Assembly (NCBI GenBank): GCA_965222225.1 | Contig: CBDCTK010000002.1 | Span: 3,840,001 to 3,904,000 of the forward strand | Direction of reading: 5' to 3' | Source: Candidatus Poribacteria bacterium | GTDB lineage: Bacteria > Poribacteria > WGA-4E > JAJDTR01 | Length of the DNA stretch: 64,000 nt | In this document: piece after piece, positions 9,496-61,487 of the stretch | Numbering within the stretch: the stretch's first letter is position 1 | Layout of the letters: each line of letters opens with the position of its first letter | Made by a program: the position numbers and the translations under genes | Notes under the pieces: generated by a model | Database searches by the model: none | What the model saw: the letters and a program-made list of their open reading frames with translations, nothing else | Told to the model about the DNA's origin: nothing

Positions 9496-9575
9496 GGTTG
9501 GTAGCGATTGTTGTTGACCGAGAAGCGAAAGCGGGGTAAAATTCTCCCGCATTTGTCATATGGAATCACCTCTAA

Positions 9576-9786
9576 GAGCCTGTTTGAATAATCGGTGGCA
9601 AAGCCATTTTTAGTTATTTGTCGGAAGTTTTTTCATGTTTTCATTGTTGGCTGCTACATACCTGTCGCCCTGCTGGGGCTTAGGTGCACGGGGTTTTTGG
9701 TGTTTCTATACACCTTCCGCCCCTCTGGGGCTTTAGATGCTAGTGCGCAGTGCGCACCCTACAAACTGTACTTTTCAAACAGGCTC
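9576..9786. mobile_element. MITE, GAGCCTGTTTGAA-TIR family (copy without hairpin element)
   Basis: Perfect 13-bp TIR, TAA target duplication, internal REP-like hairpins. Confidence 0.88.
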
Positions 9787-9850
9787 TAAGAGTGATGGAG
9801 AGCATTGACTTTAACCAAATCGAATGATGCCGCATCCGAAGGGTTTGAAG

Positions 9851-11233: not shown

Positions 11234-11288
11234 GTAGGGTGGGATCAAGGGAGCGAATAGCGACCGCGATAGAGTTCCACTGCCCACC
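11234..11288 (+). repeat. REP with inserted hairpin element
   Basis: GTAGGGTGG GATCAA GG GA GC GAATA GC GA CC GCGATAG AGTTC CACTGCCCACC. Confidence 0.85.
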
Positions 11289-15434: not shown

Positions 15435-15630
15435 GCCTATCTCAACCCGTAGACACGACGCGCAAAGTGATACGGGGACGCTCTTCGCAGCGATGTAAAA
15501 ACTGGCTATGAGCCGACAAAATAGTGGATAAGAAACTGAGTTTTCAAGAAAAAACTCGGTTTCTACGTGGAGTCCAGTCCGAAGTGTTTCTACGATTGCA
15601 GATTCGCAACGAAGGAGATTTATCGAGTTA

Positions 15631-17956: not shown

Positions 17957-18076
17957 AACGCCCAGCCCAGCCATCCACACTGACATGACACGTCCCGCCC
18001 TTCGCTGTTGAACGGTTTGAATTGGCGTGAAGACATTGGGGTAGGTTACACGGGCGGTCATCTGATACAAACCTAA

Positions 18077-18286
18077 GAGCCTGTTTGAAAAGTACAGTTT
18101 GTAGGGTGCGCACTGCGCACCAGCCTCTAACAGCCCCGGAGGGGCGGAAGGTGTGTAGAAACACCGAAACCCTGCGTACCTAAGCCCCAGCGGGGCGACA
18201 GGTATATAGCGGGCAAATACACAAACATGAAAAACTGTCTTCAAATGACTAAAAATAGCTTTGCTGCCGACTATTCAAACAGGTTC
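18077..18286. mobile_element. MITE, GAGCCTGTTTGAA-TIR family (copy without hairpin element, inverted relative to 9576)
   Basis: TIRs GAGCCTGTTTGAA / TTCAAACAGGTTC, TAA duplication, interior homologous to 9576-9786. Confidence 0.88.
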
Positions 18287-18439
18287 TAAGATAGCCTTTA
18301 GTTGAACGTGCAAATTGTACTCATTTGGTCAATAATAGGGATTTTGAGATGAACACCTCCGCTCTGCACGCCAAAGCGGCTCGTGCTGATTGATAGATCT
18401 GTGCTTGAGGTATTCATCATTGATGCGGAGGCCAGTGTT

Positions 18440-22732: not shown

Positions 22733-24349
22733 ATGATGAAAACGTTAACGTTCATCCTTATCGGTCTTGTCTGCGGATTCGTGTCGGTAACACCCCTTGC
22801 GGGCGAAGAGGTCAAGCTGATTGGTGTCGATCAAGGTGCGACGAACAGCCACATGTCCGTCGATATTATCGGAGACTCCATCATTCTCGGGGGCCAAATA
22901 TTGGCGCACAACATGAAGGACAGCTTCGCGACAATTTTCACATGGGATGCGAAAAGCTGGAAACGGACAGCGGAACTTCACCCCGGTGACCGCGACCCGG
23001 CGAACCCCGGCGCTGGCGACTTTGGATGGTCGGTCGCCGTTGACCGCATCCGTTGGTGGGGCATCACGAACTATGCTATCGTCGGAGCACCGCTGGACGA
23101 TGCTGCCGGCGCTAAGTCCGGATCGGCTTATATCTACGCCCGCACCGGAAACAACTGGAAACAGCAGGTGAAACTTATCGCCGATGATGCAGCAGCTGGC
23201 GACGCTTTCGGGTATGCCGTCTCCGTTTACGGAACCACGGCGGTCGTCGGTGCACCGAAGGACGATGACTCCGGCAGCAACTCGGGTTCAGCCTATGTGT
23301 TCGTGCGCGATGAGAACAGTTGGACGCAACATTCGAAACTCGTGCCGCAAGATTTGGGCGGATCCGATGCTTTCGGAGAGGCAATCTTAATCGTAGAGGA
23401 CACCGTTATCATCGGGGCGCCCGGACATACGCACGGTGAAATAAGATTCGCAGGTGCCGTCTACGTCTTCGTACGCGAAGGCGTGGCGTGGCTGCAAAAA
23501 GCCAAACTCACGGCAGACGACGCAGCAGCCAGCGATCGATTCGGAAATGTCCTCGCCATGAGCGGAAACACCCTCATCGTTGGGGCGCCATTGCGTGATA
23601 CGCAGGCAGGAAAAGACGCGGGCGCCGCCTACGTTTTCTCTCGCGACGGCGACCTCTGGAAACAGAGGGAGAAGCTCAAAGCCAAGAGCACACGGAAGAA
23701 CGACCATTTTGGCACCAGCGTCGCAACCACCGGAAAAATTGCCATCATTGGAGCGAATTTGCACGAAGAAAACGCGCTCGCCTCAGGTGCGGCATATTCC
23801 TTCGTAAATGTTGACGGGGTCTGGGAGGAAAGGGACAAGGTCGTGCCCGCGGACGCCGGTTTAAACACCCGTTTCGGCACGTGGGTCGCCATGAGCGGTA
23901 ACACTGTCGTTGCGTCTGCCGGGGTGACGCCGCACCCCGTCGCCGGAAGAAGTACCGGAACGGCAGCCTATGTGTATAATAGCATAGAGGATTTCAACAC
24001 ACCTCCGTACGCTGTTCGACCCGTTGGTTTAACCGTGACGACGCTAGGCAAGCTGAAGCGCACGGCGCTTTATCAGAACTTCCCCAATCCGTTCAACCCG
24101 GAAACATGGTTGCCGTATCGTCTGGCGGCAGATGCTCCGGTGACGTTTCGCATCTACAACACCCAAGGGCAACCGGTGCGAGAGTTGGATTTGGGCAGCC
24201 AAGCGGCGGGTGATTATCTGTCCCTAGAAGCGGCTGCCTATTGGGATGGCAGGGACGAATTGGGCGAGATTGTTTCGAGCGGCGTCTATTTCTACACGCT
24301 TCAGGCTGGCGTGTTCCAAGCCACGCGGCGGATGCTAATTTTGAAATAG
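22733..24349 (+). CDS. Secreted FG-GAP repeat beta-propeller protein with FlgD-Ig/T9SS-like C-terminal domain (paralog 1)
   Basis: Signal peptide; FG.SV...VGAP...G.AY repeats; QNFPNPFNPETW..YWDGRD..G..VSSGVYFY. Confidence 0.88.
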   Translation: MMKTLTFILIGLVCGFVSVTPLAGEEVKLIGVDQGATNSHMSVDIIGDSIILGGQILAHNMKDSFATIFTWDAKSWKRTAELHPGDRDPANPGAGDFGWSVAVDRIRWWGITNYAIVGAPLDDAAGAKSGSAYIYARTGNNWKQQVKLIADDAAAGDAFGYAVSVYGTTAVVGAPKDDDSGSNSGSAYVFVRDENSWTQHSKLVPQDLGGSDAFGEAILIVEDTVIIGAPGHTHGEIRFAGAVYVFVREGVAWLQKAKLTADDAAASDRFGNVLAMSGNTLIVGAPLRDTQAGKDAGAAYVFSRDGDLWKQREKLKAKSTRKNDHFGTSVATTGKIAIIGANLHEENALASGAAYSFVNVDGVWEERDKVVPADAGLNTRFGTWVAMSGNTVVASAGVTPHPVAGRSTGTAAYVYNSIEDFNTPPYAVRPVGLTVTTLGKLKRTALYQNFPNPFNPETWLPYRLAADAPVTFRIYNTQGQPVRELDLGSQAAGDYLSLEAAAYWDGRDELGEIVSSGVYFYTLQAGVFQATRRMLILK

Positions 24350-24416
24350 TAGCACCCACGCAGTTGACCCGCCAAGCTCGACTTTGTACAAAAATACAAT
24401 TCTGAATTGCCATCTT

Positions 24417-24551
24417 GTAGGGTGCGCACTGCGCACCAGCCTTTGAAAGCTCCAGCGCGAGATCAAACGAGTGAATAACGAGGGATCAAGCGACTGGATA
24501 GGGAGCGTAGAAGTCCCATAGCAAATCCCGTGCGATAGAGATCTCGACAGG
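24417..24551 (+). repeat. MITE-interior-type REPs with nested hairpin elements (24461-24546)
   Basis: GTAGGGTGCGCACTGCGCACC..CTCCAGCG, two GATCAA units and three right halves, then CGACAGG. Confidence 0.75.
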
Positions 24552-24724
24552 TTGCATAGTATCAGGAACCGCTTGAGACTTTTTCAATGGTCAACCAAAA
24601 AGACCAAATGTCTAAAATCTCCTCCATTTTTCTTCAACGCTTGATTGACACCGTTTGTTATCCCGCTTAAATGTACAAAGTCGAGTTAAACAGTTACGTA
24701 CAAACAATATAGCACGGCAAGGAG

Positions 24725-26359
24725 ATGGTCATGAAAACGACTCAGTTTATCCTCATCAGTCTTGTTGTTGGCATCGCCATGGGGAGCGCCAGTCACGCCG
24801 CCGAAGGCGAAATCAAGCTCATCGGAGCTGAGGAGGGAGCACGCAATAGAACACGTATGCCCGCCGATGTTGTCGGAAATGTCATAATCGTCGGCGTACA
24901 TGATGTGGATGTCAACAACATTCCCGGCGCGGGCAGAATCTACACACGGAATCGGACAAAGTGGGAACAGACCGCGGAACTCATCGCCCACGACCGCAAT
25001 CTAGATCAAGCCAAGCCGGGGCAGCCGGGATTCGGGTTCGCCGTCTCCATCAGCGGTCGTCCCGGGAGGACAAGCGCGGACTATGCCATCATCGGAGCGC
25101 CGGGCGACGACGACGCCGGGAAAAACGCCGGGGCAGCCTACATCTACGCTTTCAACGGGAAAGACTGGAAACAGGAGGTGAAACTTACCGCTGTGGACTC
25201 AGAAGCGGGAGACGCTTTCGGGTATGTGGTCTCGGTTGATGGGACCACTGCGGCGGTTGGCGCGCCCAAGGACGATGATGCCGGCAGCAATTCGGGGGCA
25301 GCTTTTGTCTTAGTGCGCGATGCGAATAGATGGAAGCAGCATGCGAAGCTCATCCCCAAAGATTTGGCGAAATCGGACGCACTGGGTGAGGCAGTCGACA
25401 TTCAAGGGGACACCGTAATCGCCGGGGCGCCCGGGCACACTCATGGCGGCGTAAGGTTCGCCGGCGCCGTTTACGTTTTCGTGCGTGATGGGGATGCGTG
25501 GAAGGAACAAGCTAAACTCACGGCCGACGATGCGGCACCTAGCGACCGATTCGGAGTTTCGGTTGGCATTGAAGGCGACACTGTCATCGTCGGATCGCTG
25601 CTGAACGATGCTGGCGGTAAGAAAGATGCCGGCGCCGCTTACATCTTTGTCCGTGACGGAAACAACTGGAAACAGCAGGCAAAACTGATTGCACCGAAGA
25701 AGCGAAAGGGCGACCATTTCGGTGCAGCGGTTGCCACCACCGGTAAGATTTCCGTCGTTGGCGCACCGCTCCGCGAAGAGGGCGGACTCGGCGCGGGTGC
25801 CGCGTATTCATTTGTTAACGTTGACGGCGTCTGGAAAAATGCGGAAACGGTTGTGCCCGAGGGCGCCGCGCCAAACCTCGTTTTCGGCTCCGCGCTTGCC
25901 ATAAGCGGCGATACGATTGTCGTTGCTGGCGGTGCCGCCCCTGAAGTCGCTGCCGGATTCGGTAATGGTACAGCGGCATACGTTTATAGCGGGGAGAAGC
26001 ACTTTGGCACACCACCCTTCGCTGTCGAGCCGTTTGGATTGAAGATCGCAACGCTGGGACAGGTCAAACGCACCGCGCTCTTTCAAAATTTTCCCAATCC
26101 GTTCAACCCGGAAACATGGTTGCCGTATCGTCTGGCGACAGATGCTCCGGTGACGTTTCGCATCTACAACACCCAAGGGCAACCGGTGCGAGAGTTGGAT
26201 TTGGGCAGCCAAGCGGCGGGTGATTATCTGTCCCTAGAAGCGGCTGCCTATTGGGATGGCAGGGACGAATTGGGCGAGATTGTTTCTAGCGGCATCTATT
26301 TCTACACGCTTGAAACTGGGGCGTTCCAAGCCACGCGACGAATGCTGATTTTGAAGTAG
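24725..26359 (+). CDS. Secreted FG-GAP repeat protein with FlgD-Ig/T9SS-like C-terminal domain (paralog 2)
   Basis: Same architecture as paralog 1. Confidence 0.88.
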   Translation: MVMKTTQFILISLVVGIAMGSASHAAEGEIKLIGAEEGARNRTRMPADVVGNVIIVGVHDVDVNNIPGAGRIYTRNRTKWEQTAELIAHDRNLDQAKPGQPGFGFAVSISGRPGRTSADYAIIGAPGDDDAGKNAGAAYIYAFNGKDWKQEVKLTAVDSEAGDAFGYVVSVDGTTAAVGAPKDDDAGSNSGAAFVLVRDANRWKQHAKLIPKDLAKSDALGEAVDIQGDTVIAGAPGHTHGGVRFAGAVYVFVRDGDAWKEQAKLTADDAAPSDRFGVSVGIEGDTVIVGSLLNDAGGKKDAGAAYIFVRDGNNWKQQAKLIAPKKRKGDHFGAAVATTGKISVVGAPLREEGGLGAGAAYSFVNVDGVWKNAETVVPEGAAPNLVFGSALAISGDTIVVAGGAAPEVAAGFGNGTAAYVYSGEKHFGTPPFAVEPFGLKIATLGQVKRTALFQNFPNPFNPETWLPYRLATDAPVTFRIYNTQGQPVRELDLGSQAAGDYLSLEAAAYWDGRDELGEIVSSGIYFYTLETGAFQATRRMLILK

Positions 26360-26459
26360 TTGAAACTTCCTTAATGAGTGTAGGGAACGCAGATCTGCGT
26401 TCCCAACTACGCTCGACTTTGTGCATTTGTAAGGTGGGCACTCTGCCTTACATTTTTAT

Positions 26460-26515
26460 GTAGGAGGGGATCAAGCGAACGGATAGTGAGTGCGATAGAG
26501 ATCCCATTGCCCCGA
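26460..26515 (+). repeat. REP with inserted hairpin element
   Basis: GTAGGAGGG GATCAA GC GA AC GGATA GT GA GT GCGATAG AGATCC CATTGCCCCGA. Confidence 0.85.
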
Positions 26516-26632
26516 TGTTTTATCTATAGCGTGCCATTATCCCTGTCGGAATATTTCCCTCATCAAGAAACACTCATTTTTCACTCTATGACTAGCTTTG
26601 AGAAAGTGTTACTTGGTAAAAGTTCAAAGGAG

Positions 26633-28267
26633 ATGGTCATGAAATTGACTCAGTTTTTCCTCATCAGTCTTGTTGTTGGCATCGCCATTGGGAGCGCCAG
26701 TCACGCCGCCGAAGGCGAAATCCAGCTCATCGGAGCTGAGGCCGGAATACGCAATAGAGGTCGAATGCCCGCCGATATTGTGGGAGATGTCGTAATCGTC
26801 GGCGTGCATAATGTGGACCACGACAAGTTTCCGGGCGCCGGCAGAATCTACACACTGAATCGGAATAAGTGGGAACTGACCGCGGAACTTACCCCTCATG
26901 ACCGAAAACTGAATATACCGAATCCGGGGCAGCCGGGGTTCGGATACGCTGTCTCAATCAGCGCGCCGCCAGGACGCAGAAACGCGGACTATGCCATTAT
27001 CGGAGCGCCGGGCGATGACGAAGCCGCAGAAAACGCCGGGGCAGCCTACATATACGCCTTCAACGGGCATGACTGGCAACAGGAGGTGAAACTTACCGCT
27101 GCCGACGCGGGGCAGAGAGACGCTTTCGGGTATGTGGTCTCGGTTGATGGCACAACCGCGGTGGTTGGCGCGCCCGGGGACGATGATGCCGGCAACAATT
27201 CCGGGGCAGTTTATGTCTTCGTCCGCGATGCGAACGGATGGAAACAGCACACCAAGCTCGTCCCCAAAGATTTGGCGAAATTGGATGCATTCGGTGATGC
27301 GGTCGGGATCCAAGCGAGCACCCTTATTGTCGGGGCGACCGGGCACACACATGGCGGCGAAAGATTCGCAGGCGCTGTTTTCGTCTTCGTCCGCGATGGC
27401 GATACGTGGAGGATGCAAGCCAAACTCACGGCTGACGATGCGGGTGCCGGTGACCAGTTCGGCGCTTCGGTTGGCATGGAAGGCGACACTATTATCGTAG
27501 GAGCCAAAAAGCACGATTCCGACGGCATAAAAGACGCCGGCGCCGCATATATTTTTCAGCGCGACGGAAACACTTGGAAACAGCAGGCAAAGCTAACTGG
27601 GCCAAAGAAGCGAAACGGGGATCACTTCGGAACAGGCGTTGCCACGAGCAGGAATATCGCGATCGTTGGCGCGCCGCTCCGGGAAGAGGGCGGACCCAGC
27701 GCGGGTGCCGCGTATTCCTTCGTGAATGTTGACGGCGTCTGGAAGAATGCTGCAACGGTGGTGCCCGACGTCGCACATCCAAACCTCTTTTTCGGCTCCG
27801 CGATCGCCATAAGCGGCGATACTGTCATTGTCACTGGCGGAGACGGACCGGAAAAGGGCGTCGGAGTCGGTAACGGAATAGTGGCGTATGTTTATGGTGG
27901 AGCAGAGCACTTCAATACCCCGCCTTTCGCCGTCGAGCCATTTGGTTTGAAGGTCACAACTTTGGCTCACCTCAAACGCACTGCACTCTATCAAAACTTC
28001 CCCAATCCGTTCAATCCGGAAACCTGGCTGCCGTATCGTCTGGCGACAGACGCACCGGTAACGTTTCGTATCTACAACATCCAAGGGCAACCGGTGCGAC
28101 AGTTGAATCTGGGCAGGCAAACAGCGGGTGATTATCTGTCCCGAGAAACGGCTGCGTATTGGGATGGCAGGGACGAATTGGGCGAGATGGCTTCCAGCGG
28201 CGTCTATTTCTACGCGCTTGAAGCTGGGGCGTTCCAGGCTACGCGACGGATGCTGATTTTGAAGTAG
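26633..28267 (+). CDS. Secreted FG-GAP repeat protein with FlgD-Ig/T9SS-like C-terminal domain (paralog 3)
   Basis: Start set by homology with paralog 2 (AAGGAG ATGGTCATGAAA). Confidence 0.88.
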   Translation: MVMKLTQFFLISLVVGIAIGSASHAAEGEIQLIGAEAGIRNRGRMPADIVGDVVIVGVHNVDHDKFPGAGRIYTLNRNKWELTAELTPHDRKLNIPNPGQPGFGYAVSISAPPGRRNADYAIIGAPGDDEAAENAGAAYIYAFNGHDWQQEVKLTAADAGQRDAFGYVVSVDGTTAVVGAPGDDDAGNNSGAVYVFVRDANGWKQHTKLVPKDLAKLDAFGDAVGIQASTLIVGATGHTHGGERFAGAVFVFVRDGDTWRMQAKLTADDAGAGDQFGASVGMEGDTIIVGAKKHDSDGIKDAGAAYIFQRDGNTWKQQAKLTGPKKRNGDHFGTGVATSRNIAIVGAPLREEGGPSAGAAYSFVNVDGVWKNAATVVPDVAHPNLFFGSAIAISGDTVIVTGGDGPEKGVGVGNGIVAYVYGGAEHFNTPPFAVEPFGLKVTTLAHLKRTALYQNFPNPFNPETWLPYRLATDAPVTFRIYNIQGQPVRQLNLGRQTAGDYLSRETAAYWDGRDELGEMASSGVYFYALEAGAFQATRRMLILK

Positions 28268-38906: not shown

Positions 38907-40325
38907 ATGAACCGTGTCTTTGAAAACACATCCGCGCTTCTAGGCGCCCATCTCATCACTCGCTTGCTCTCCTTAGGTGTGACATATTTGCTCATGACTC
39001 GTTACTATGGAGAAAAGGAGATGGGGAGCTACTTTCTCGCCATGTATTTCACCAACTTGATTGCTAGTGTGACTGAGTTGGGTATGCATGCTCCGCTGAT
39101 TCGTGAAATGGCCCTGCGTTTGAATCAAGCGCGGCATTTCCTTGGAAATGCTTTGATTATTAGAACCTTGCTATCAATTGTCGCATTCGGATTGATGCTT
39201 GGGGTGGGACGTCTGTTGAATTATCCGCCAGCCACCATGCAGATAATCAAACTGTTCGGGTTGGCGGAGATTCTTAACTTGGTTGCGCAGTCGTACCGCT
39301 GCGTCTTTCGGGCATTCGAGCAGATGAAATATGAAGCCTTCACCGTTATTGCTGAGCGGTCTGTGGTTTGCGTCGTTGGTGGAGTGTTAATTGTCCTGGG
39401 CGTGAATCTCTACGATTTCTGCGTCGTAATCCTAATCGCGAGTTGCATCAACCTTGCCCTGAGTGTCGTGCTCGTCCGATGGAAGTTTGTCGGGTTGCGT
39501 TTTCGATTCAATCTGGCAATCTGGAGCGTGTTGATGCGCCAAGCGTTACCCTTTGCACTCGGCAACATGTTCCATCTCGTCTATCTTCGGATAGGTGCCA
39601 TCATGCTTGAAAGGCTGGGCCCGGACGGCATCGCCGCAAACGCTTGGTTCGGCTTGGCGCATACCTTCGTAAACGCGGTCACAATCCTCCCGGGCGCATT
39701 CTTGGGCGCGATGTTCCCGGTGATGGCTCGCGCTTTCGAGGACAACGAGAGCGACTTTCGCGCGGCGTACACCTACGCGACCCGATGGATGGTTCTGCTC
39801 GGGGTTCCCACTGCTGTTGGCATCGCCGCATTAGCGTGGCAAATAGTCGCCATATTGCCACCGGACAAATACGCGGCATCACGGGTCGCCCCCGCGTTGC
39901 AGTTGTTGAGTTGGTCGGGCGGGCTTGCCTTTTTGACGACAACCCTCATCACGTTGCTGCGGGCGGCGGATAAACGCACCCAGCTCACGCTGCTTATGGG
40001 AGCAACCACGCTCATAAACATCGGGTTAAACTATCTGCTCATTCCTCGGCACAGCCATATCGGCGCCGCGGTGTCGCTGATTGTTAGCGAATCGTTTCTG
40101 TTCGTTGCCGGCTTCGTTTACATTTCTCGGCGCGTCGCAACGCTGACTACTATACGGTATGGGTTCAAAGCCGTCGTGCTTTCCGCTCTGATGGGCTGCG
40201 GACTGATTGTTCTCAGAAAACTATTGCCGATATGGGTACTCATTCCGTTGGCGATCTTGTTCTATGCAGCGGGAATGGCAATTTGGGGGGAATTGAGGCG
40301 GGACAGTTTCAAGCAGGCACTGTAG
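38907..40325 (+). CDS. Oligosaccharide flippase (Wzx/PST family)
   Basis: Many TM helices, ELG....IRE, AMFP, LNYLLIP..HIGAA. Confidence 0.85.
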   Translation: MNRVFENTSALLGAHLITRLLSLGVTYLLMTRYYGEKEMGSYFLAMYFTNLIASVTELGMHAPLIREMALRLNQARHFLGNALIIRTLLSIVAFGLMLGVGRLLNYPPATMQIIKLFGLAEILNLVAQSYRCVFRAFEQMKYEAFTVIAERSVVCVVGGVLIVLGVNLYDFCVVILIASCINLALSVVLVRWKFVGLRFRFNLAIWSVLMRQALPFALGNMFHLVYLRIGAIMLERLGPDGIAANAWFGLAHTFVNAVTILPGAFLGAMFPVMARAFEDNESDFRAAYTYATRWMVLLGVPTAVGIAALAWQIVAILPPDKYAASRVAPALQLLSWSGGLAFLTTTLITLLRAADKRTQLTLLMGATTLINIGLNYLLIPRHSHIGAAVSLIVSESFLFVAGFVYISRRVATLTTIRYGFKAVVLSALMGCGLIVLRKLLPIWVLIPLAILFYAAGMAIWGELRRDSFKQAL

Positions 40326-40381
40326 TTGACAGGGTCATGAACTTGCTTGAATGGGACGTGGCGAAACAATCGCAATTGCAT

Positions 40382-40504
40382 GAAGGAGTGATCAACCGAC
40401 CAGACAGGGACGGCGATAGAAATTCCCTCCGATTCGCGACTCCGATTGCCGACAGTTAAAGATCCCTATCGCATTCCTTATTCAGTCGCTTGATCCCGAC
40501 CTAC
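40382..40504. repeat. Two convergent REPs, each filled with a hairpin element
   Basis: Plus unit at 40390 inside GAAGGAGTGATC..TCCGATTCGCGAC; minus unit 40460-40495 inside a GTAGGTCGG REP. Confidence 0.82.
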
Positions 40505-40513
40505 CGGAAAGCG

Positions 40514-40864
40514 TTAGACCGCCGATGAAACCGTAAATCCCCCGACCAACGAATAGTTCGCGGCGTATTGATAGAGTTTAGAATTCACCTTCTGAATTTG
40601 GTCGGGTGTGTGATGAGTTCCCTCATTAGACCAGGCAGCATTATTGGCTTCTACACTTTCCCAGAGCGTCAACCAACCGTAATCGGACTCGGCATGTGCC
40701 ACGGCGTCAAGATCGCCTTGGTATCCTTTCAGCAACTCTACCCCTAGGCAGCCGGGCAGCGCGCGAATCGAGGGCAAAAACTCGTGCAACATGAAATCCT
40801 CAAACAACTCCCCTTCAACGTCAGGTTTCAGTTCAATCGTGTGAATGGCACGAAAACGTGGCAT
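40514..40864 (-). CDS. Small protein, dimeric alpha-beta barrel/ABM-like
   Basis: GGAG RBS; LPGCL..ELLKG..W.TLWESVEA pattern. Confidence 0.6.
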   Translation of the reverse strand: MPRFRAIHTIELKPDVEGELFEDFMLHEFLPSIRALPGCLGVELLKGYQGDLDAVAHAESDYGWLTLWESVEANNAAWSNEGTHHTPDQIQKVNSKLYQYAANYSLVGGFTVSSAV

Positions 40865-40962
40865 AAATGTTAACTCCTCACAATCAGCAATGGACGTGCG
40901 CTGCGAAATAGAAGATTACGCTCGATTCAAGCGCATTCCGTACCTCGCAACTCCGTTCTAGT

Positions 40963-42033
40963 TTAACGCCCTCCGATGAACGCTTCCAACATCTCTCTGG
41001 CTTCCGTGTCGGGATACTGCCTCGGGGGTGATTTCATGAAGTAGGCGCTTGGACCGTAGAGAGCCCCGCCGATTCCTCGGTCACGCGCAATCTTGCAGCA
41101 GCGGATAGCATCAATCGACACACCCGCCGAGTTTGGCGAATCCCAGACTTCCAGTTTCAACTCAAGCCTTACCGGAATGTCGCCAAATTCTGTTCCTTCC
41201 AGATGGAGATAGCACCATTTTCGGTCATCAAGCCACGGCACATAGTCGCTCGGGCCTATGTAGACGTTCCTTGGCGAAATGTCGTGGTTAAGTTGAGAGA
41301 CGACAGCGTCCGTCTTGGAGATTCGCTTGGACTCCAACCGCTCTTTCTCAAGCATATTTTTGAAGTCCATGTTCCCGCCTACATTTAGCTGAGAGGTGCG
41401 GTCAACTTTCAATCCACGATCGCACATCAGTTTTGTCAGGACGCGATGAACAATTGTCGCGCCGAATTGTGCCTTGATGTCATCACCGACGATGGGCAAG
41501 CCCGCAGACTCAAACTTGGCACGCCACTGATCGTTCTTGGCGATGAAAACAGGCATGCAATTCACGACACCGCAACCGGCATCCAATGCCTGCGTCACGT
41601 ACCATTTGGTCGCTTCCTCGCTGCCGACGGGCAAGTAGTTAATGAGGACATCAGCCTCACTTTCTCGCAACACGGCGGCGACTTCAACGACTTCGGCGGA
41701 CGACTCTTCCACCGTCTCGCGGTAGTATTTGGCGAATCCATCCATCGTCGGTCCGCGGTGAACGGTGACGCCCGTCTCCGGCACATCCGAGAATTTAATG
41801 GTGTTGTTCGGTTCAACCCAAATTGCCTCGGCTACATCCCTACCAACCTTGTTGCTATCCACATCGAATGCCGCCACAATCTCAATATCGCTTACGTGGT
41901 AGTCGCCCACGTTTACGTGCATAAGGCCGGGCACGAATTCGTCGCCTTTGGCATCCCGATAGTAATGAATTCCTTGAATCAACGAAGAAGCGCAGTTTCC
42001 TAGACCAACAATAGCAACACGAATTTTTGACAT
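40963..42033 (-). CDS. ino1: Inositol-3-phosphate synthase
   Basis: [51 protein letters not shown]. Confidence 0.93.
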
Positions 42034-42502
42034 CGTCTCGATCCTCCAATTTGAATGTATGAATCGCTGTCAGGTGAATGAATCATGTTCGAAGGCAACA
42101 GCTCGCGTAACGACAAAATCAGCGACTCAAGAGCAATCGGATATTCATAGAAATCCTTATGTATGTAGTCCATTTCACAGTATGGCTCTAATCACCGAGT
42201 GCGGGGCTTACCGCGAGTTAGCCTATAGGATAAGATTTTGCCCTCTACACAAAGCGATTGTCGGGTGTACCTGCCGACCTACGAGAAGACATCTTGTAAA
42301 ACAGCGTAATCAGGAAGTATACACCAAAATTCATAAAAGATCAAGAGCATTTGCTGGGATAGAAGCAGGGAATGGCTGAACGGACGGAAGAGTGGAAGGA
42401 GGGAACAGGGTGAATAGAGAAGTAGCGGAGAGGGAGGCCGGGGATTCGATGGTCACCGATGTCACCCTACAGAAAAAGTGCACCACACGGGAGAAAGAAA
42501 CC

Positions 42503-42620
42503 GATCAACCGACCGGATAAATCAAGCGATCGAACAGGGGGCGATCAAGGGAATGAAAAATGACCGCGATAGAGTTCGCATAGGGATCCCAGGGCGATAG
42601 AAAATCCAGATAGAGATCCC
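42503..42620 (+). repeat. Triple-nested hairpin elements inside an AGAAACCGA..CTCGGTTTC palindrome
   Basis: Three left halves then matching right halves in reverse order; empty host type at ~15531-15564. Confidence 0.82.
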
Positions 42621-42700
42621 TTTCAGGAAAAATCTCGGTTTCAACACCTTGGAATTTACAAAGGCTGGCGGGATTTCTACACCTGAACAAAACGGGCTAC

Positions 42701-42742
42701 GAGCCTGTTTGAAAAGTACAGTTTGTAGGGTGCGATCAGCTG
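42701..42742 (+). mobile_element. Single left end of the GAGCCTGTTTGAA MITE, truncated at a hairpin-element start
   Basis: GAGCCTGTTTGAAAAGTACAGTTTGTAGGGTGC GATCAGCTGA. Confidence 0.65.
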
Positions 42743-42992
42743 ACGAGTTCAATCAAACCAAGAGTATAGGTATAAAGATAAACCCACCTACGACATCAAG
42801 AGTCAGTTTGAGTAATGGATAGAAGAGTCATGTCTGGTCACATGAGGAGTGGCTTTTTTGTTGCTTTGCAGTCACTCGCGCTGCAACGCACGCGGAAAAT
42901 GTTTGGTGGTCTCTTCGTGTGCTCGAGAATACGAGAAAAGTAGACAGTGAAACAGTGCGAAGAAAACGGCGGCACTGGCAAAGGAGGTTTTT

Positions 42993-43655
42993 GTGATGAG
43001 AAAAGCGCAATTTTTGGGTTTTAGTCTTTTGCTCACTTCTGTTCTGTTTCTGCAGAACAGTTTTGCCCAAGACTATACCCGATGGGAGTTGCCCGAGGGC
43101 GCCAAATCACGTTTCGGCAAAGGTTTGATAACCGGCAATATAGAGTATTCGCCAGATGGCAGGAAACTCGCGGTTGGGAGCAGCATCGGTGTCTGGCTAT
43201 ATGATACCGCCAACGGTGCCGAAATCAACTTGTTCGCAGGACATACGCGCCCGGTACGTTGCGTGGCGTTCTCTCCTGATGGTACCATACTTGCCAGGGG
43301 GAGTGGTGACACGACGATCCGATTGCTACAGTTGGCACGTTTAGCCGCAGTGTCAAGAGCGACGAACACGTCGCTCTTGCCAAACTACCCGAATCCGTTC
43401 AATCCGGAGACGAGGATGCCGTATCAATTGGCGAAAGCCGCAGAAGTGACATTCACGATTTACGATATGAATGGGTGGAAGGTTCGAACGCTGGCGGTGG
43501 GACATCAACCTGCCGGTGTATATCAGAGTCGCAGCCGTACAGCGCATTGGGACGGGCGGAACGACGCCGGTGAGCCGGTGGGAAGCGGAGTATATTGGTG
43601 CACCCTTGATGCCGGGAGTTATCAAGAAACGCGGAAGATCGTCATACAAAAATAG
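42993..43655 (+). CDS. Short secreted WD40-repeat protein with FlgD-Ig/T9SS-like CTD; probably internally deleted
   Basis: QDYTRWELPEGAK.R.GKG, about two WD40 repeats (YSPDG, GHT..V..VAFSPDG), then NYPNPFNPET..WDGRN. Confidence 0.7.
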   Translation: MMRKAQFLGFSLLLTSVLFLQNSFAQDYTRWELPEGAKSRFGKGLITGNIEYSPDGRKLAVGSSIGVWLYDTANGAEINLFAGHTRPVRCVAFSPDGTILARGSGDTTIRLLQLARLAAVSRATNTSLLPNYPNPFNPETRMPYQLAKAAEVTFTIYDMNGWKVRTLAVGHQPAGVYQSRSRTAHWDGRNDAGEPVGSGVYWCTLDAGSYQETRKIVIQK

Positions 43656-43738
43656 CACGTAAGGTTTCTTCCGGAGTAGCTTATCGGGAATCAACAGAAT
43701 TGCGTTTTAGTTCGTTCATGATAGGGTTTGATTCACCA

Positions 43739-44884
43739 TCATTGCGGGATGCTCATCCCAACCGAGATGAAGCGCGCCGCACGCGCGGCAGCCTCAACCG
43801 TAAGGTCAAAAGCGTTTTCAACCGCACTCTCCAACGGCATCGGCGCTGGTACAATATCGATTATGGCGTCGATTCCCGCTCCATGAACGCCCTCGGCTCC
43901 GTCGGCGATACTTCCGGAAACGGCGATCACGGGAATGCCGTACTTCTTTGCAAGCTTCGCGACACCGACAGGCGTTTTGCCAAAAACGGTTTGAAAGTTG
44001 ATTTCTCCTTCGCCAGTCACGACGAAGCTCGCGCCCTCAAGTTGCTTTTCGAGTTGCACGGCGTCAATCACGATCTCCACGCCGGATTTCAATTCAGCAT
44101 TCATAAAAGCGATCAAACCCGCGCCTAGCCCGCCAGCAGCCCCCGCACCCGGAATCTCTCCAACAACTTTCCCCATATCACGTTGAACAACTGAGGCGAA
44201 ATGCGCCAAGTTTGCGTCCAGTGTTTCGATCATCTCGGGCGTCGCGCCTTTTTGCGGTCCATAAACATAGGCTGCCCCGTTCGTGCCCGTCAACGGATTG
44301 TCTACATCGCAAGCGACAACGGTGGCGGTTGCCGCAAGCCGCGAATCTAAATAGGCCAGATTGATTGCGTTGAGTGCACCTAACCCCCCGCCACCGGGTG
44401 AAATCTGTTTACCATCCGATGTCAGCAACTTCGCGCCGAGAGCTTCCGCCATCCCTGCGCCGCCATCGCTCGTCGCACTCCCTCCGATGCCGATGATTAG
44501 CTTCCGACACCCTCGATTCAAGGCGGCTTTAATGAGTTGCCCTGTCCCGTACGTCGTTGTTACCAGCGGGTTACGTCGATCAAATGGCACAAGCGTTAAA
44601 CCGGAAGCCGCTGCCATTTCGATGACTGCCGTAGTCCTATCTCCGAGGATGCCATATTGCGCCTCGATTTCGTTCCCAAGCGGATCCGCAACTCGCTCAA
44701 CTAGAAGCTGACCGCCAGTTGCATCAACAAGCGATTGGACGGTGCCTTCACCACCATCTGCCATCGGCGTTTTTTTTATCATTGCATCGGGAAATACCTT
44801 TCTCATGCCCTGTTCTATGGCTTCGGCAGCTTGCAAAGCGGAAAGGCTTCCTTTGAACGAATCCGGTGCTACAACGATTTTCAT
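43739..44884 (-). CDS. glxK: Glycerate kinase
   Basis: MKIVVAPDSFKGS, ADGGEGT, GIGGSAT.DGG, CDVDNPL.G, GAAGG.G, TGEG. Confidence 0.93.
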   Translation of the reverse strand: MKIVVAPDSFKGSLSALQAAEAIEQGMRKVFPDAMIKKTPMADGGEGTVQSLVDATGGQLLVERVADPLGNEIEAQYGILGDRTTAVIEMAAASGLTLVPFDRRNPLVTTTYGTGQLIKAALNRGCRKLIIGIGGSATSDGGAGMAEALGAKLLTSDGKQISPGGGGLGALNAINLAYLDSRLAATATVVACDVDNPLTGTNGAAYVYGPQKGATPEMIETLDANLAHFASVVQRDMGKVVGEIPGAGAAGGLGAGLIAFMNAELKSGVEIVIDAVQLEKQLEGASFVVTGEGEINFQTVFGKTPVGVAKLAKKYGIPVIAVSGSIADGAEGVHGAGIDAIIDIVPAPMPLESAVENAFDLTVEAAARAARFISVGMSIPQ

Positions 44885-45082
44885 AGTGGAGTTTTCCGTA
44901 TCCGAAGGCGAGAGAGAAGTTTTTGGAGTAGTGAGAAGCAGTAGGACGACTACGTTCGTGAAGAAAAGTGACAAACCCTTACGGAATGTCGGGTGCCGCT
45001 AGCTTACTTTTCGACGTGTCCGTTCTCTTACCACCAAAACTTTAGCATAGCACACAGATTGAGTTCCACTCAACAGTAAATA

Positions 45083-46068
45083 GACATCTTTCCAAAATAA
45101 GCATCTATTTGGCTTGATTTTACGTTATATCCTTTCAACATCTTCTATTGTAGAAAGGATACCCATGAGTCAATTTGAAAAAGCAGTAAAGTTGTCAGAT
45201 GAGCAATTTCTGCGGGCGGTTGGTGTTGATAAGACAACTTTCAACCTTATTTTGGAGCGTGTGGCTGTTTACCTCGAAAGTGTTCGAGAAGAACGGCCGA
45301 TGAAGAAACGAGGAAAGAAATCGGAGGTGGCATTGCCCGATCGCCTTCTATTGACATTCACCTATTTGCGCCACTATCCAACCTTTGCCAGATTAGGCAC
45401 GGAGTTTGGTATCAGTGAGTCTTATGCAAATAAAATCTATCATCAGATACTTGATGTGTTATTAAAGTGCTTTCGATGAAGAATCGAAAGCACTTATTAG
45501 AGAGCAATCTCCAAACAATCGTCATTGATGTCACCGAGCAACCCATTGAACGTCCAACAAAAGGACAGCGTGTCTACTACAGCGGTAAAAAAACGGCACA
45601 CAATAAAAGTTCAATTGATTGCGTGTTTGGCGATGTTAGAAATATTATCGGTTATCTGCCGCAAAGGGGGCGTTCACGATTACAGAATTCTGAAGGAAAG
45701 CCGTCTGGCGATTTCCCCCGAAACTGAGAAGTTGGCTGACAGTGGTTATCAGGGCATAGCCAAACTGTATGCCAACAGTTCGACGCCCATCAAGAAATGT
45801 CGGAGTGGGCCCTTGACTCAGGAGGCAAAGCAATTCAACCGACGGTTGGCAACACAAAGGGTTGGTATTGAGCATATCGTCAGATGGTGTAAGATTTTTC
45901 GCATCACCAAAGACATCTATCGAGGCAAACATCGCAACTATGGGAAAACATGGAATGTGATTGCCGCGATTGTTAACTTGTGACACTCCTCGACAAGTTG
46001 CCAAACAGTGTAGTTATTCTAATCTCCAAGATTACTGTAACTACATAATTCCATTTTGGAAAGATGTC
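45083..46068 (+). mobile_element. IS5-family (ISL2-like) insertion sequence
   Basis: 16-bp TIR GACATCTTTCCAAAAT / ATTTTGGAAAGATGTC, flanked by TA. Confidence 0.85.
45165..45983 (+). pseudogene. IS5-family transposase split over three frames
   Basis: HTH part (YLRHYPT..LG..FGISES), IDVTEQPIERP..YYSGKK, A7 run, LADSGYQG, RVGIEH; extra shift near 45465. Confidence 0.8.
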
Positions 46069-46340
46069 TAATGAGCTTCGTATCAGGAAAACCGGGCAAA
46101 CGATGAATAAGCTCGGTATCGGGGCAAAAGCGCAACTCCGAATAGATTTTCAGAAAAAACTCAAAAAAGTGCTGTGAAACGCCGATTTATATAAAATTTA
46201 TGAAACGACCGCTAGATAACATCGTTTGTGAAGTGTACGTAAGTTTCAGAAATGTGTTTTGAGTGCGTTCTGGGTGTATCTTTCCAAAAGATATATCATC
46301 CTACATCTTGGCTCGACTGGTACATTTGTAGACACCGGGC

Positions 46341-46615: not shown

Positions 46616-47659
46616 TAGGAGTTACGCAGTTGAGTGAAAATAGGTTATAATTTGAGTATGAATCCCCCTAAATATACTGACACTGACTATATTGATTTCT
46701 TGGTAGCCGCTCAGAAAAGTTACAGTTGTCTTGAATCGGAAAAAGTTCAACCCCAAGCTGATAATCCTCCGGCTCACGATTCGATAACACGGCTCTTGCA
46801 TCGAGAGGAACCCGATACTGGCAAACTGTGGCAAGAATCGAGAAATCAGGTGAAATTAGAATCCGGAATTTTAGTTATAGATGACTCGACTCTGGATAAA
46901 CCTTATTCACAAAAGATTGAACTCGTGACAAAACACTGGTCAGGGAAACACCACCGAGTTGTGAATGGGATTAACTTGGTCACTTTGCTCTGGACGGATG
47001 GCGATAGACATATTCCGTGTGATTATCGAATCTATGATAAAGCCAAAGACGGCTTGACGAAGAATGAGCATTTCCGCGCCATGCTTGAAGAAGCGAAAAC
47101 ACGCGGTTTTGCTCCTGAATGTGTGTGTTTTGATAGTTGGTATGCCAGTCTAAAGAATCTAAAAGCGGTGCGAGGTCATGGTTGGAAGTGGCTTACTCGT
47201 CTAGCTGCCAACCGACTTGTCAGTAAAGATTATTCCGGTAACCGTCCGGTGAGTACGCTTCCGAGTGAATCAACAGGTACAATTGTCCATCTCAAAGGCT
47301 ATGGATTGATTCGAGTATTTAAGGTTGACACTCCAGAAGGTGACATTGAATATTGGGCAACGAATGATTTACAGATGGACGAATTGACGCGTCTCAAATA
47401 TGCCGAATGGTCTTGGACAATAGAAGAATATCATCGCGGGATTAAGCAATTTGTTGGCATTGAACGCGCACAAGTGCGCTCTGCTCGCACTCAAAGAAAT
47501 CATATCGGTTTAGCGCTGAGAGCCTTTCTGAGAATTGAGCACTATTGCTATCATACCGGTATCAGTTGGTTTGATGCAAAACTCTCTATTGTCAGAGATG
47601 CGGTACGGGCTTATTTGGCACAACCTCTTTATACGCTTCAGCCAACTGCGTAACTCCTA
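46616..47659 (+). mobile_element. IS701-family insertion sequence, intact
   Basis: Perfect 17-bp TIR TAGGAGTTACGCAGTTG, flanked by a CTATA direct repeat. Confidence 0.9.
46658..47653 (+). CDS. IS701-family DDE transposase
   Basis: HDSITR.L, VIDDSTLDKPY, FDSWY, W.IEEYHRGIKQ..G. Confidence 0.9.
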   Translation: MNPPKYTDTDYIDFLVAAQKSYSCLESEKVQPQADNPPAHDSITRLLHREEPDTGKLWQESRNQVKLESGILVIDDSTLDKPYSQKIELVTKHWSGKHHRVVNGINLVTLLWTDGDRHIPCDYRIYDKAKDGLTKNEHFRAMLEEAKTRGFAPECVCFDSWYASLKNLKAVRGHGWKWLTRLAANRLVSKDYSGNRPVSTLPSESTGTIVHLKGYGLIRVFKVDTPEGDIEYWATNDLQMDELTRLKYAEWSWTIEEYHRGIKQFVGIERAQVRSARTQRNHIGLALRAFLRIEHYCYHTGISWFDAKLSIVRDAVRAYLAQPLYTLQPTA

Positions 47660-61217: not shown

Positions 61218-61299
61218 GAAATCGGTTTTTCATCAGCTAATACCATTCCGCTTGAATAATAGTGCATATGATGTCTGAATTATATCGTTCACTTTCTCC

Positions 61300-61368
61300 G
61301 TAGACGGGATCAACTGACTGGATAAGGAAGGCGATAGCTAATCCCGATAGAGATTTCCTTGCCCCGCC
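61300..61368 (+). repeat. REP with inserted hairpin element
   Basis: GTAGACGG GATCAA CT GA CT GGATA AG GA AG GCGATAG CTAATCCC GATAGAGATTTCC TTGCCCCGCC. Confidence 0.85.
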
Positions 61369-61487
61369 GACTTTGCACGGAGACAAGGCGTCTTATTCCG
61401 CTCCACGCAAGATTCTTTAATTGATCCACGTAATCAATGCACTTGCATTTTAAAGAAATGGTATAATACGCATGCTCGGTAAAATTA

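Follow-up and report, generated by a model that had tools for sequence, protein, structure and literature searches.

Three described systems come closest to the element treated here, a non-coding repeat unit of 36-38 nt that lies nested in itself within a 64-kb stretch of a Candidatus Poribacteria genome: the small dispersed repeats (SDRs) of cyanobacteria, the REP and REPIN repeats with their RAYT proteins, and the IS200/IS605 elements together with PATEs. The hairpins of SDRs are said to be kept by compensatory change, and SDRs to nest in one another, in the work of Elhai et al. of 2008 (Genome Res 18:1484). The two ends of IS200/IS605 elements form different hairpins, and no bases of the target are lost when these elements insert; the insertion sequences IS1397 and ISKpn1 reportedly target REP hairpins, as Tobes and Pareja are said to have noted in 2006. 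To our knowledge neither self-nesting nor the replacement of target bases has been reported as a feature of REPINs; literature searches that touched on REPs or REPINs listed nothing on either, and no description of an element such as this one was among the titles listed for sponge symbionts or REPs. SDR1-8 of the Nostocaceae are treated in several later papers (PMC4390886, PMC5861425, PMC13756078, PMC3116915). In these, SDR5 is placed between the third and fourth base of HIP1 (GCGATCGC), after GCG (PMC4390886), it is described as 21 nt long and of no known function (PMC13756078, 2026), and no SDR is stated to have been found outside the Nostocaceae (PMC5861425). How an element can move when it is too short to code for anything, or even to have both ends of a transposon, is a question posed since the cyanobacterial SDRs, and it becomes testable here.

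The stretch analysed, called the window in the following, covers positions 3840001-3904000 of contig C2 in a genome (G000) of 5.70 Mb and 2 contigs. At 42503-42620 of the window three copies of one unit are nested in one another and are followed by the 3' remnant of a fourth, outermost copy, the whole standing in a terminator-like host hairpin; that this arrangement arose by nested insertion of a mobile element is very probable. The best explanation, to which we give a probability of roughly 0.6, is a stack of successive insertions of a micro-element of 36-38 nt, made into the host hairpin and then into the element itself, the element being non-autonomous and moved by a hairpin-dependent single-strand mechanism. 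The unit has the consensus (G)ATCAA-XX-GA-YY-GRAHA-Y'Y'-GA-X'X'-GCGATAG, which forms a core of 30 nt and is followed by a tail of 7 nt (ARATYYY) or 8 nt (NARATYYY).

With SDRs the unit shares its very small size (SDRs measure 21-27 nt), its lack of coding sequence and its high repetition, and being shorter than about 40 nt, dispersed, and accompanied by evidence of mobility and nesting it has the broad features by which SDRs are recognized. SDR5 inserts precisely after GCG (PMC4390886), and the site of the unit likewise follows a G, often in CG or GCG. The differences are that the unit is found most often inserted into copies of itself, that 1-2 bases are replaced, and that its host is not a cyanobacterium; the genome contains only 120 HIP1 sites, encodes many proteins with type-IX-secretion-system (T9SS) tails and belongs to a small phylum (176 species genomes in the collection). 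REP and REPIN-RAYT systems are similar in being imperfect palindromes of about 35 nt with a conserved single-stranded motif beside the stem, in their hundreds of intergenic copies and in the compensatory changes of their hairpins. Moreover, the genome encodes both RAYT-like and IS200-like Y1 proteins and contains other REP-like families with a 5' GTAG. The unit, however, carries GATCAA on the 5' side and GCGATAG (GATAG) on the 3' side of the stem in place of a 5' GTAG. It resembles IS200/IS605 elements and PATEs in an apparent hairpin dependence, in strand specificity, in insertion 3' of a short word without target duplication and in an orientation bias that can be related to replication. Nevertheless it has one hairpin, replaces 1-2 bases and lies with its sense strand mostly on the C-rich strand, and the first two of these features do not agree with an IS200/IS605-derived miniature, which would have different left and right subterminal hairpins and insert without loss of target bases. 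As with IS1397 and ISKpn1, hairpin repeats are preferred and position-specific targets, but those are full-length protein-coding elements whereas the invader here is itself a hairpin of 37 nt.

The pattern used for the searches was taken from the innermost copy (GATCAA NN GA NN GAAAA NN GA NN GCGATAG). With up to 3 mismatches it matched 21 times in the window and 0 times in 100 dinucleotide shuffles, and with up to 2 mismatches 1021 cores were found genome-wide; the commonest 8-mers of the genome are words of the element. Judged by crude gene calls based on open reading frames, 983 of the 1018 chromosomal copies are outside genes, that is, mostly between them. Many stand shortly 3' of stop codons (for example at window positions 11243 and 22438), and copies are clustered in some regions of the genome. 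No Rfam covariance model matched the region 40000-45000 of the window at E values up to 1, and the viral contigs gave 0 matches to the unit pattern.

The hairpin is kept by compensatory change, and on one strand only. In the 21 window copies 94.0% of the stem cells hold standard pairs compared with 56.4% in shuffles, a value reached by 0 of 500 shuffles; the cells changed on both sides number 37 (14.4 in shuffles), all four stem pairs covary, and pairing falls to 24-56% when the partner is shifted by 1-3 columns. Genome-wide all four pairs are standard in 856 of 1021 units, with 238 distinct stem combinations, and every one of the 42 commonest combinations is fully paired. The two GA steps, which are nearly invariant, stand opposite each other and give a tandem G.A/A.G; in the loop GRAHA the fourth base varies (T 0.85, C 0.13). 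In sum there are 437 G:T or T:G pairs and 62 A:C or C:A pairs, an asymmetry from which it follows that the fold matters on the written strand only.

The locus had been read in the original prediction as a triple self-insertion whose layers are nested. Its letters were found identical when the sequence was read again, and a recursive parser, in which a complete unit is excised with 0-4 lost bases allowed and a re-formed unit is sought across the cut, returned a chain of three at this place (C2, + strand, 3882542). Of the 1021 cores of the whole genome, 254 leave a restored outer unit when excised by the same procedure; for decoys the figure is 62 of 2042 when the cut is moved by 45-120 nt and 12 of 2042 when it is moved by 1-3 kb; decoys shifted by 7-20 nt (248 of 2042 restored) make cuts that fall inside nests and, being an unfair control, were not used. 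A scan of excisions over all left and right offsets gave sharp ridges at net 34 and 36 nt, where single cells held as many as 93 restorations, the background being 0-20. Of 320 stem pairs that an insert has split, 251 are complementary, whereas swapping the right halves in 1000 permutations gave a mean of 0.66 and a maximum of 0.716; this excess is real but modest, because few letters are allowed at those positions. The restoration of outer units and of their X/X' and Y/Y' complementarity, proposed as a check of the nesting, is thus found above decoys and permutations. Chains of one, two, three and four units were returned for 767, 212, 38 and 4 cores, numbers that are lower bounds because side-by-side inserts within one outer unit are left unresolved. 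With 42 cores reaching a depth of at least 3, the triple nest is one of about forty in the genome. The suggestion that the covarying dinucleotides act as bracket labels holds at the locus for the X pair of the third layer (CC..GG), which encloses its insert; the Y' bases of that layer are lost, and the GC labels of the middle unit both lie 5' of its insert, so that for these the image does not apply.

Insertion takes place directly 3' of a G, at the expense of the 1-2 bases that follow, and fixed sites are hit repeatedly both in the element itself and in other hairpin repeats. The 294 distinct junctions comprise 147 at core position 24, which is the G23^C24 step of GCGATAG and accounts for half of them, 45 at position 20, 29 at position 13 in the loop, 29 at position 18 and 16 at position 19. 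At the main hot spots 13, 20 and 24 the insert is preceded by a G that belongs to the consensus of the outer unit. The number of lost bases was compiled for the junctions as had been proposed: a 7-nt tail goes with 2 bases lost after the G (...YYY ATAG) and an 8-nt tail with 1 (...YYY GATAG), so that the earlier figure of 2-3 replaced bases was roughly right, the counts becoming 3 and 2 if the 5' G is taken as borne by the element. The same rule of loss is seen in a GTAG-type REP family, GGTGCG^(CA)CTGCGCACC, in the repeat that flanks an IS200-like gene, GGGG^(CG)ACAGGTG, and in the host hairpin of the nest, GAAACCG^(AG)TTTT. Accordingly the proposal that hairpins in general, the element included, serve as targets is borne out by these three other families and by the element, with the refinement that what is used is a fixed position after a G and not simply the loop. 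The restored outer unit has the same orientation as its insert for 273 cores and the opposite one for 36, and the opposite examples inspected are at or beside the G23^C24 step.

The unit is mobile, as filled and empty sites are observed both between species and between paralogous repeats. When 71 kb of the closest sister genome (G005) were compared with this genome, a clean orthologous empty site was met for the window copy at 11243 (Table 1). At one locus of G005 an outer unit is interrupted in its loop by another unit, and the orthologue here is intact; at another, two layers are present in G005, and two paralogous copies here share both layers and have a third, innermost unit at G23^C24. 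These differences indicate that layers were added one at a time, the innermost last, as had been supposed when the layers were said to record the order of insertion. From level 0 to level 3 the mismatches at fixed positions rise (3.0%, 4.5%, 5.5% and 14.9%) and the standard stem pairs fall (95.6%, 88.0%, 83.6% and 68.8%), a decay that grows from inner to outer layers and may have been inflated by mis-set junctions.

The host of the nest, which had been assigned to a different palindrome family, is indeed a hairpin repeat with the family sequence AAGAAACCGAGTTTTGAGGAAAAAACTCGGTTTC. Among the matches listed for its 10-mer (70 of 91) at least about 25 copies are unfilled, and the site GAAACCG^AG is filled in at least 5 rows by units of different stem type. 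Unfilled copies had been noted in the window near 15531 and 54370; the first is unfilled and the second only close to that form. Positions 42497-42504 are paired with 42635-42642 in folds with both RNA and DNA parameters, and the junction between the orphan tail and the T-run of the host is identical to that in other filled host copies. This fourth 3' module had been left unparsed before. Its junction with the third layer has the form that insertions at core position 24 usually take, and orphan modules of this kind, lacking a 5' part, follow 55 of 767 un-nested units, so that 5'-less remnants can be regarded as a regular by-product. The 5' part of the middle unit contains a T.G wobble, and its second GA is replaced by GG. 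In nine sister genomes (7 anchored, 2 not) synteny ends at about 42350 and no empty site for this nest was found.

Table 1. Parts of the nest and of its host hairpin, and the window copy with an empty orthologous site (window positions)
Feature	Position	Strand	Remarks
Host hairpin, 5' arm AAGAAACCG	42495..42503	+	G42503 doubles as the first G of the element; host family consensus
U1 (third layer from inside), 5' part GATCAA CC GA CC GGATA	42503..42519	+	Restored with 1 mismatch; junction at core position 18
U2 (middle), 5' part AATCAA GC GA TC GAACA GG GG GC G	42520..42543	+	1 mismatch and 2 bases missing when restored; junction at core position 24
U3, innermost complete unit	42543..42579	+	Core 42543-42572 with 0 mismatches to the pattern; 7-nt tail AGTTCGC at 42573-42579
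U2, 3' part ATAG and tail GGATCCC	42580..42590	+	CG of GCGATAG lost; commonest nest class (tail + ATAG)
U1, 3' part: A, GG (X' to CC), GCGATAG, 8-nt tail AAAATCCA	42591..42608	+	Junction-18 class
Orphan 3' module GATAG AGATCCC, remnant of U0 (fourth, outermost)	42609..42620	+	5' part gone; tail abuts host TTT
Host remainder, loop and 3' arm TTTCAGGAAAAATCTCGGTTTC	42621..42642	+	Host family
Another window copy	11243..11278	+	Clean orthologous empty site in G005: GTAGGGTGGG^CACTGCCCACC

Close to the nest, at 42706-42740 of the window, stands GTAG + GGTGCGCACTGCGCACC, a member of a classical REP-like family with 58 sites genome-wide. This family is often found within a longer composite repeat (...CCTGTTTGAAAAGTACAGTTTGTAGGGTGC...CCAGCCTCTAAAAGCCCCAGAGGGGCGGAAGGTGTGTAGAAACACC...), and its copies are met both empty and filled by the element; one resident fill (stem type AG/AT) seems to have spread along with the composite.

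For the movement of the unit we consider the following scheme. Four parts make up the unit: a 5' box (G)ATCAA that is single-stranded, a hairpin whose two stems of 2 bp have the tandem G.A/A.G between them and a GRAHA pentaloop as cap, a 3' box GCGATAG and a pyrimidine-ended tail (N)ARATYYY. It would act as a folded single strand, more likely as DNA at a replication fork than as RNA, and an enzyme provided in trans would read the hairpin and the boxes and cut after the G. Remnants lacking the 5' part, such as 42609-42620, may result from deletion between two GATCAA direct repeats of a nest, or from a reaction in which the resident 5' part is swapped out. That the enzyme is a Y1/HUH transposase of the genome, of the IS200/RAYT kind, is a guess in which we place little confidence, because the replacement of target bases is unlike known Y1 transposition.

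The orientation of the copies shows a regional bias. The sense strand is on the locally C-rich strand in 707 of 1018 copies (r = -0.36 with GC skew in 50-kb surroundings), a bias whose p-values are overstated because copies are clustered and related, and co-orientation with flanking genes is seen in 353 of 653 only. The GC skew of C2 is patchy, with many changes of sign, and does not describe two clean replichores. The orientation of the element flips with it, as in single 100-kb bins with 31/1, 28/1 and 0/13 plus and minus copies.

Several points weigh against this explanation, beside the possible inflation of the decay gradient and of the strand-bias statistics. With RNA parameters the expected hairpin is the minimum-energy fold of the innermost unit (-6.8 kcal/mol, z -1.64, ensemble frequency 0.83), but DNA parameters do not give this hairpin as the minimum, and for so short a sequence the z-scores are weak (-0.4 to -2.0). 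In the 'peel and paste' transposition of Y1 enzymes no target bases are lost, whereas 1-2 are replaced here. The leading strand is usually G-rich, and if this applies the sense strand tends to lie opposite to the strand used by IS200/IS605 elements. Moreover, all five Y1 (HUH) transposase loci of the genome, RAYT-like and IS200-like, were examined and none is consistently flanked by the unit or otherwise tied to it. The repeat that flanks the intact IS200-like gene is another hairpin family, in which the element is present simply as an insert, and the clade of this gene is present in 7 of 7 genomes of an element-free genus and gave no match in 2 of 4 genomes of the second element-bearing genus. 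Intact RAYT homologues (193-225 aa) in six sister genomes, two of them syntenic beside the same upstream gene, have no unit within about 1.5 kb.

The remaining data on Y1 genes can be summarized as follows. Three other loci of this genome include one without a unit within about 900 nt and two with a single unit or unit-like match adjoining. The Y1 family occurs in 34 of 41 relatives, genera without the element included, and the RAYT-like clade in three genera, with 8 of 9, 2 of 4 and 4 of 7 genomes respectively. Three Y1 proteins of this genome are intact, with lengths of 157, 247 and 160 aa. The intact IS200-like transposase (157 aa) is encoded at C2:3080258-3080728 on the minus strand. Its homologues in several genera are flanked on both sides by the hairpin repeat AGCCCCAG(N)GGGGCGACAGGTG..ATAG at 11 of 16 loci and by a variant repeat with a different stem (CGCTCCAGCGGAGCG, or CACTCCAGCGGAGTG in one) at the other 5, so that this repeat looks like the enzyme's own end or REP sequence. 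At C2:3560268-3560543 (minus strand) two inverted units enclose a RAYT-like gene of which 92 C-terminal codons are left; in genome G012 no inverted unit pair brackets a gene among the matches listed (100 of 159 sites). A single-copy RAYT gene flanked by its own REPs, as in a REP/REPIN-RAYT system, is found at none of the five Y1 loci. Close inverted pairs of units do occur (window 40390/40466; G012 185144/185193), and co-oriented nests dominate.

A related but bolder reading supposes a reaction of no described transposon, in which a folded strand of 37 nt is spliced in 3' of a G and 1-2 target bases, sometimes together with the resident 5' part, are expelled. Such a replacement insertion would read structure and not sequence, and might be carried out by an unrecognized enzyme common to two sponge-associated genera or come about by incorporation of a small structured strand at the fork. 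We regard it as unlikely, more so than the participation of a Y1 enzyme.

Somewhat less probable still is a spread mediated by RNA, by which a transcribed unit would fold with tandem sheared G.A pairs and a GNRA-like pentaloop, and a reverse transcriptase or comparable enzyme activity would copy it into the DNA of hairpin sites. The tolerance of wobble pairs on one strand would agree with such a route, as would the success of the RNA parameters, and not of the DNA ones, in predicting the hairpin; the variable fourth base of the loop also fits the extruded base of a GNRA-like pentaloop. Tandem G.A pairs and GNA-type loops, however, are stable in DNA too. The orientation of the units tracks the local GC skew and not the direction of flanking genes, and neither an A-tail nor another mark of retro-elements is present. 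One reverse transcriptase match exists in the genome, in a frame of 679 aa, but it is weak (27.5 bits alone; 29.9 when its neighbours are included, the cut-off being 29.6) and shows no connection with the element.

The unit could also spread without an enzyme, by template switching or slippage between hairpins at stalled forks or by the annealing of short single strands, with microhomology (a G on the left, a C/T run on the right) setting the junctions. This would account for target bases that are replaced and not duplicated, for targets that are hairpin-prone repeats, for the strand bias relative to GC skew and for the frequency of 5'-less remnants, and the survey of Y1 loci did not yield a linked enzyme. 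Nevertheless the boundaries of the unit are very sharp and identical over hundreds of events, a single site in the 34-nt host hairpin was hit in at least five rows by different stem types, and no complementarity was seen between the last bases of the tail and the upstream flank. Only two genera of the order carry the family, moreover, though other genera have hairpin repeats beside Y1 genes, and we consider the enzyme-free origin rather improbable.

It can further be imagined that no insertion took place, and that tandem duplication or slippage combined with recombination among copies kept for a function, such as that of a terminator, an mRNA stabilizer or a protein-binding site. Copies shortly after stop codons, a hairpin under selection and regional clustering would suit such an origin. 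The original prediction had argued for nesting and against tandem slippage, and the present results sustain it: the two stem labels of an inner unit are both unlike those of the outer one, the outer unit is complete again after excision and its split pairs are complementary, orthologous sites are empty and species differ layer by layer. A function in place would, in addition, leave units inside units unexplained. This alternative is therefore largely refuted and highly improbable, but a host function of resident copies in addition to their mobility is possible.

The assembly of the nest was compared with contigs of other sequencing runs. A contig of run X2 spans 41800-42572 with 0 differences, and contigs of run X6 span 42106-42572 (2 differences) and 42554-42715 (1 difference); contigs of the two runs have 42554-42572 in common. 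No single contig extends over the nest as a whole, and the runs may depend on the same source sample as the genome. That repeats were collapsed or wrongly chained in the assembly is very unlikely, the least probable reading of all, in view of the genome-wide regularity of the nests and their conservation between species: short-read contigs of other runs do break inside the nest at 42572 and none crosses it, but those of X2 and X6 match both of its halves with 0-2 differences, this locus is among the cores that reach a depth of at least 3, all ten genomes of the genus have hundreds of copies, several of these genomes being in 1-3 contigs, and the architecture of nests is conserved at orthologous loci of this genome and G005. 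In run X6 a diverged contig (28 differences in 42106-42349) joins 42349 with 42489, 42520 with 42609 and 42680 with 42739, unknown letters standing between them. Its joining of 42520 to 42609 was considered as an empty site and is unreadable as such owing to these letters; the host hairpin and the outer parts seem to be the same in a related strain, but to be filled differently. Long contigs of the RNA runs X15 and X16 stop near 42264-42293 and only short repeat-sized pieces fall on the nest, which has no bearing on transcription. A run with the label sponge metagenome yielded a metatranscriptome contig that agrees with 41800-42293 except for one difference.

Exact copies of the unit number 334-899 in 10 of 10 genomes of the genus and 116-140 in all four genomes of a genus that belongs to another family. 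In the remaining 26 relatives searched there were 0-2 matches, and a reversed control pattern gave 0 everywhere. The same stem types are met in both element-bearing genera. In the phylum collection (176 genomes) a match was obtained in 22; the strays that were located, in three genomes of other genera, are confined to a handful of contigs and are probably carry-over from binning.

In a Nostoc genome (G176) a pattern for split HIP1 sites gave 558 matches, compared with 117 for its reversed control. The recurrent insert, 21 nt long, lies between GCG and ATCGC of HIP1 when the other strand is read; two CGTAG words occur in it, as does a small hairpin in which a T/C change faces a G. From the length and site given for SDR5 in PMC13756078 and PMC4390886, this insert is probably the published SDR5. 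Over genome contigs at large a HIP1-flanked pattern gave, among the matches listed, only chance hits in many phyla. An identity of the unit with SDR5 was rejected, because this 21-nt family is without the GATCAA box, the tandem GA and GCGATAG, and because the targets of the unit are hairpin repeats and itself, not HIP1. On the sequences compared, the unit is a very small mobile repeat in a new phylum with a target rule of its own, which resembles SDRs and REPs and is unrelated in sequence to the likely SDR5.

The family is well suited to the study of such movement, with about 1000 copies per genome, ten sister species, ordered nests, fixed targets that are reused, and orthologous sites both filled and empty. 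Cleavage sites, target rules and tempo can be read from the sequence, and enzymes can be sought by phylogenetic profiling of the two genera with the element and the many without. Should the replacement-insertion reading be true, a thousand copies with about 240 stem variants would amount to a natural deep-mutational scan of recognition. In practical terms the element breaks short-read assemblies of these symbiont genomes and supplies markers at the level of strains.

The window contains other repeats as well. One of about 220 bp forms an inverted pair 8 kb apart at 9570-9790 and 18070-18290, is MITE-like and has about 17 copies in G005 with 79-93% identity, and another of about 230 bp (61238-61466) has at least 17 copies there with 81-86% identity. 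Segments of about 1 kb at 45081-46070 and 46616-47659 are probably insertion sequences, with 6 full-length and 10 G005 copies of 91-96% identity. The GC content dips to 0.41 at 46-48 kb of the window. At 22733-28267 and 42993-43655 are members of a large paralogous family of secreted proteins with a T9SS C-terminal sorting domain, which forms tandem arrays here and long arrays in all the sister genomes.

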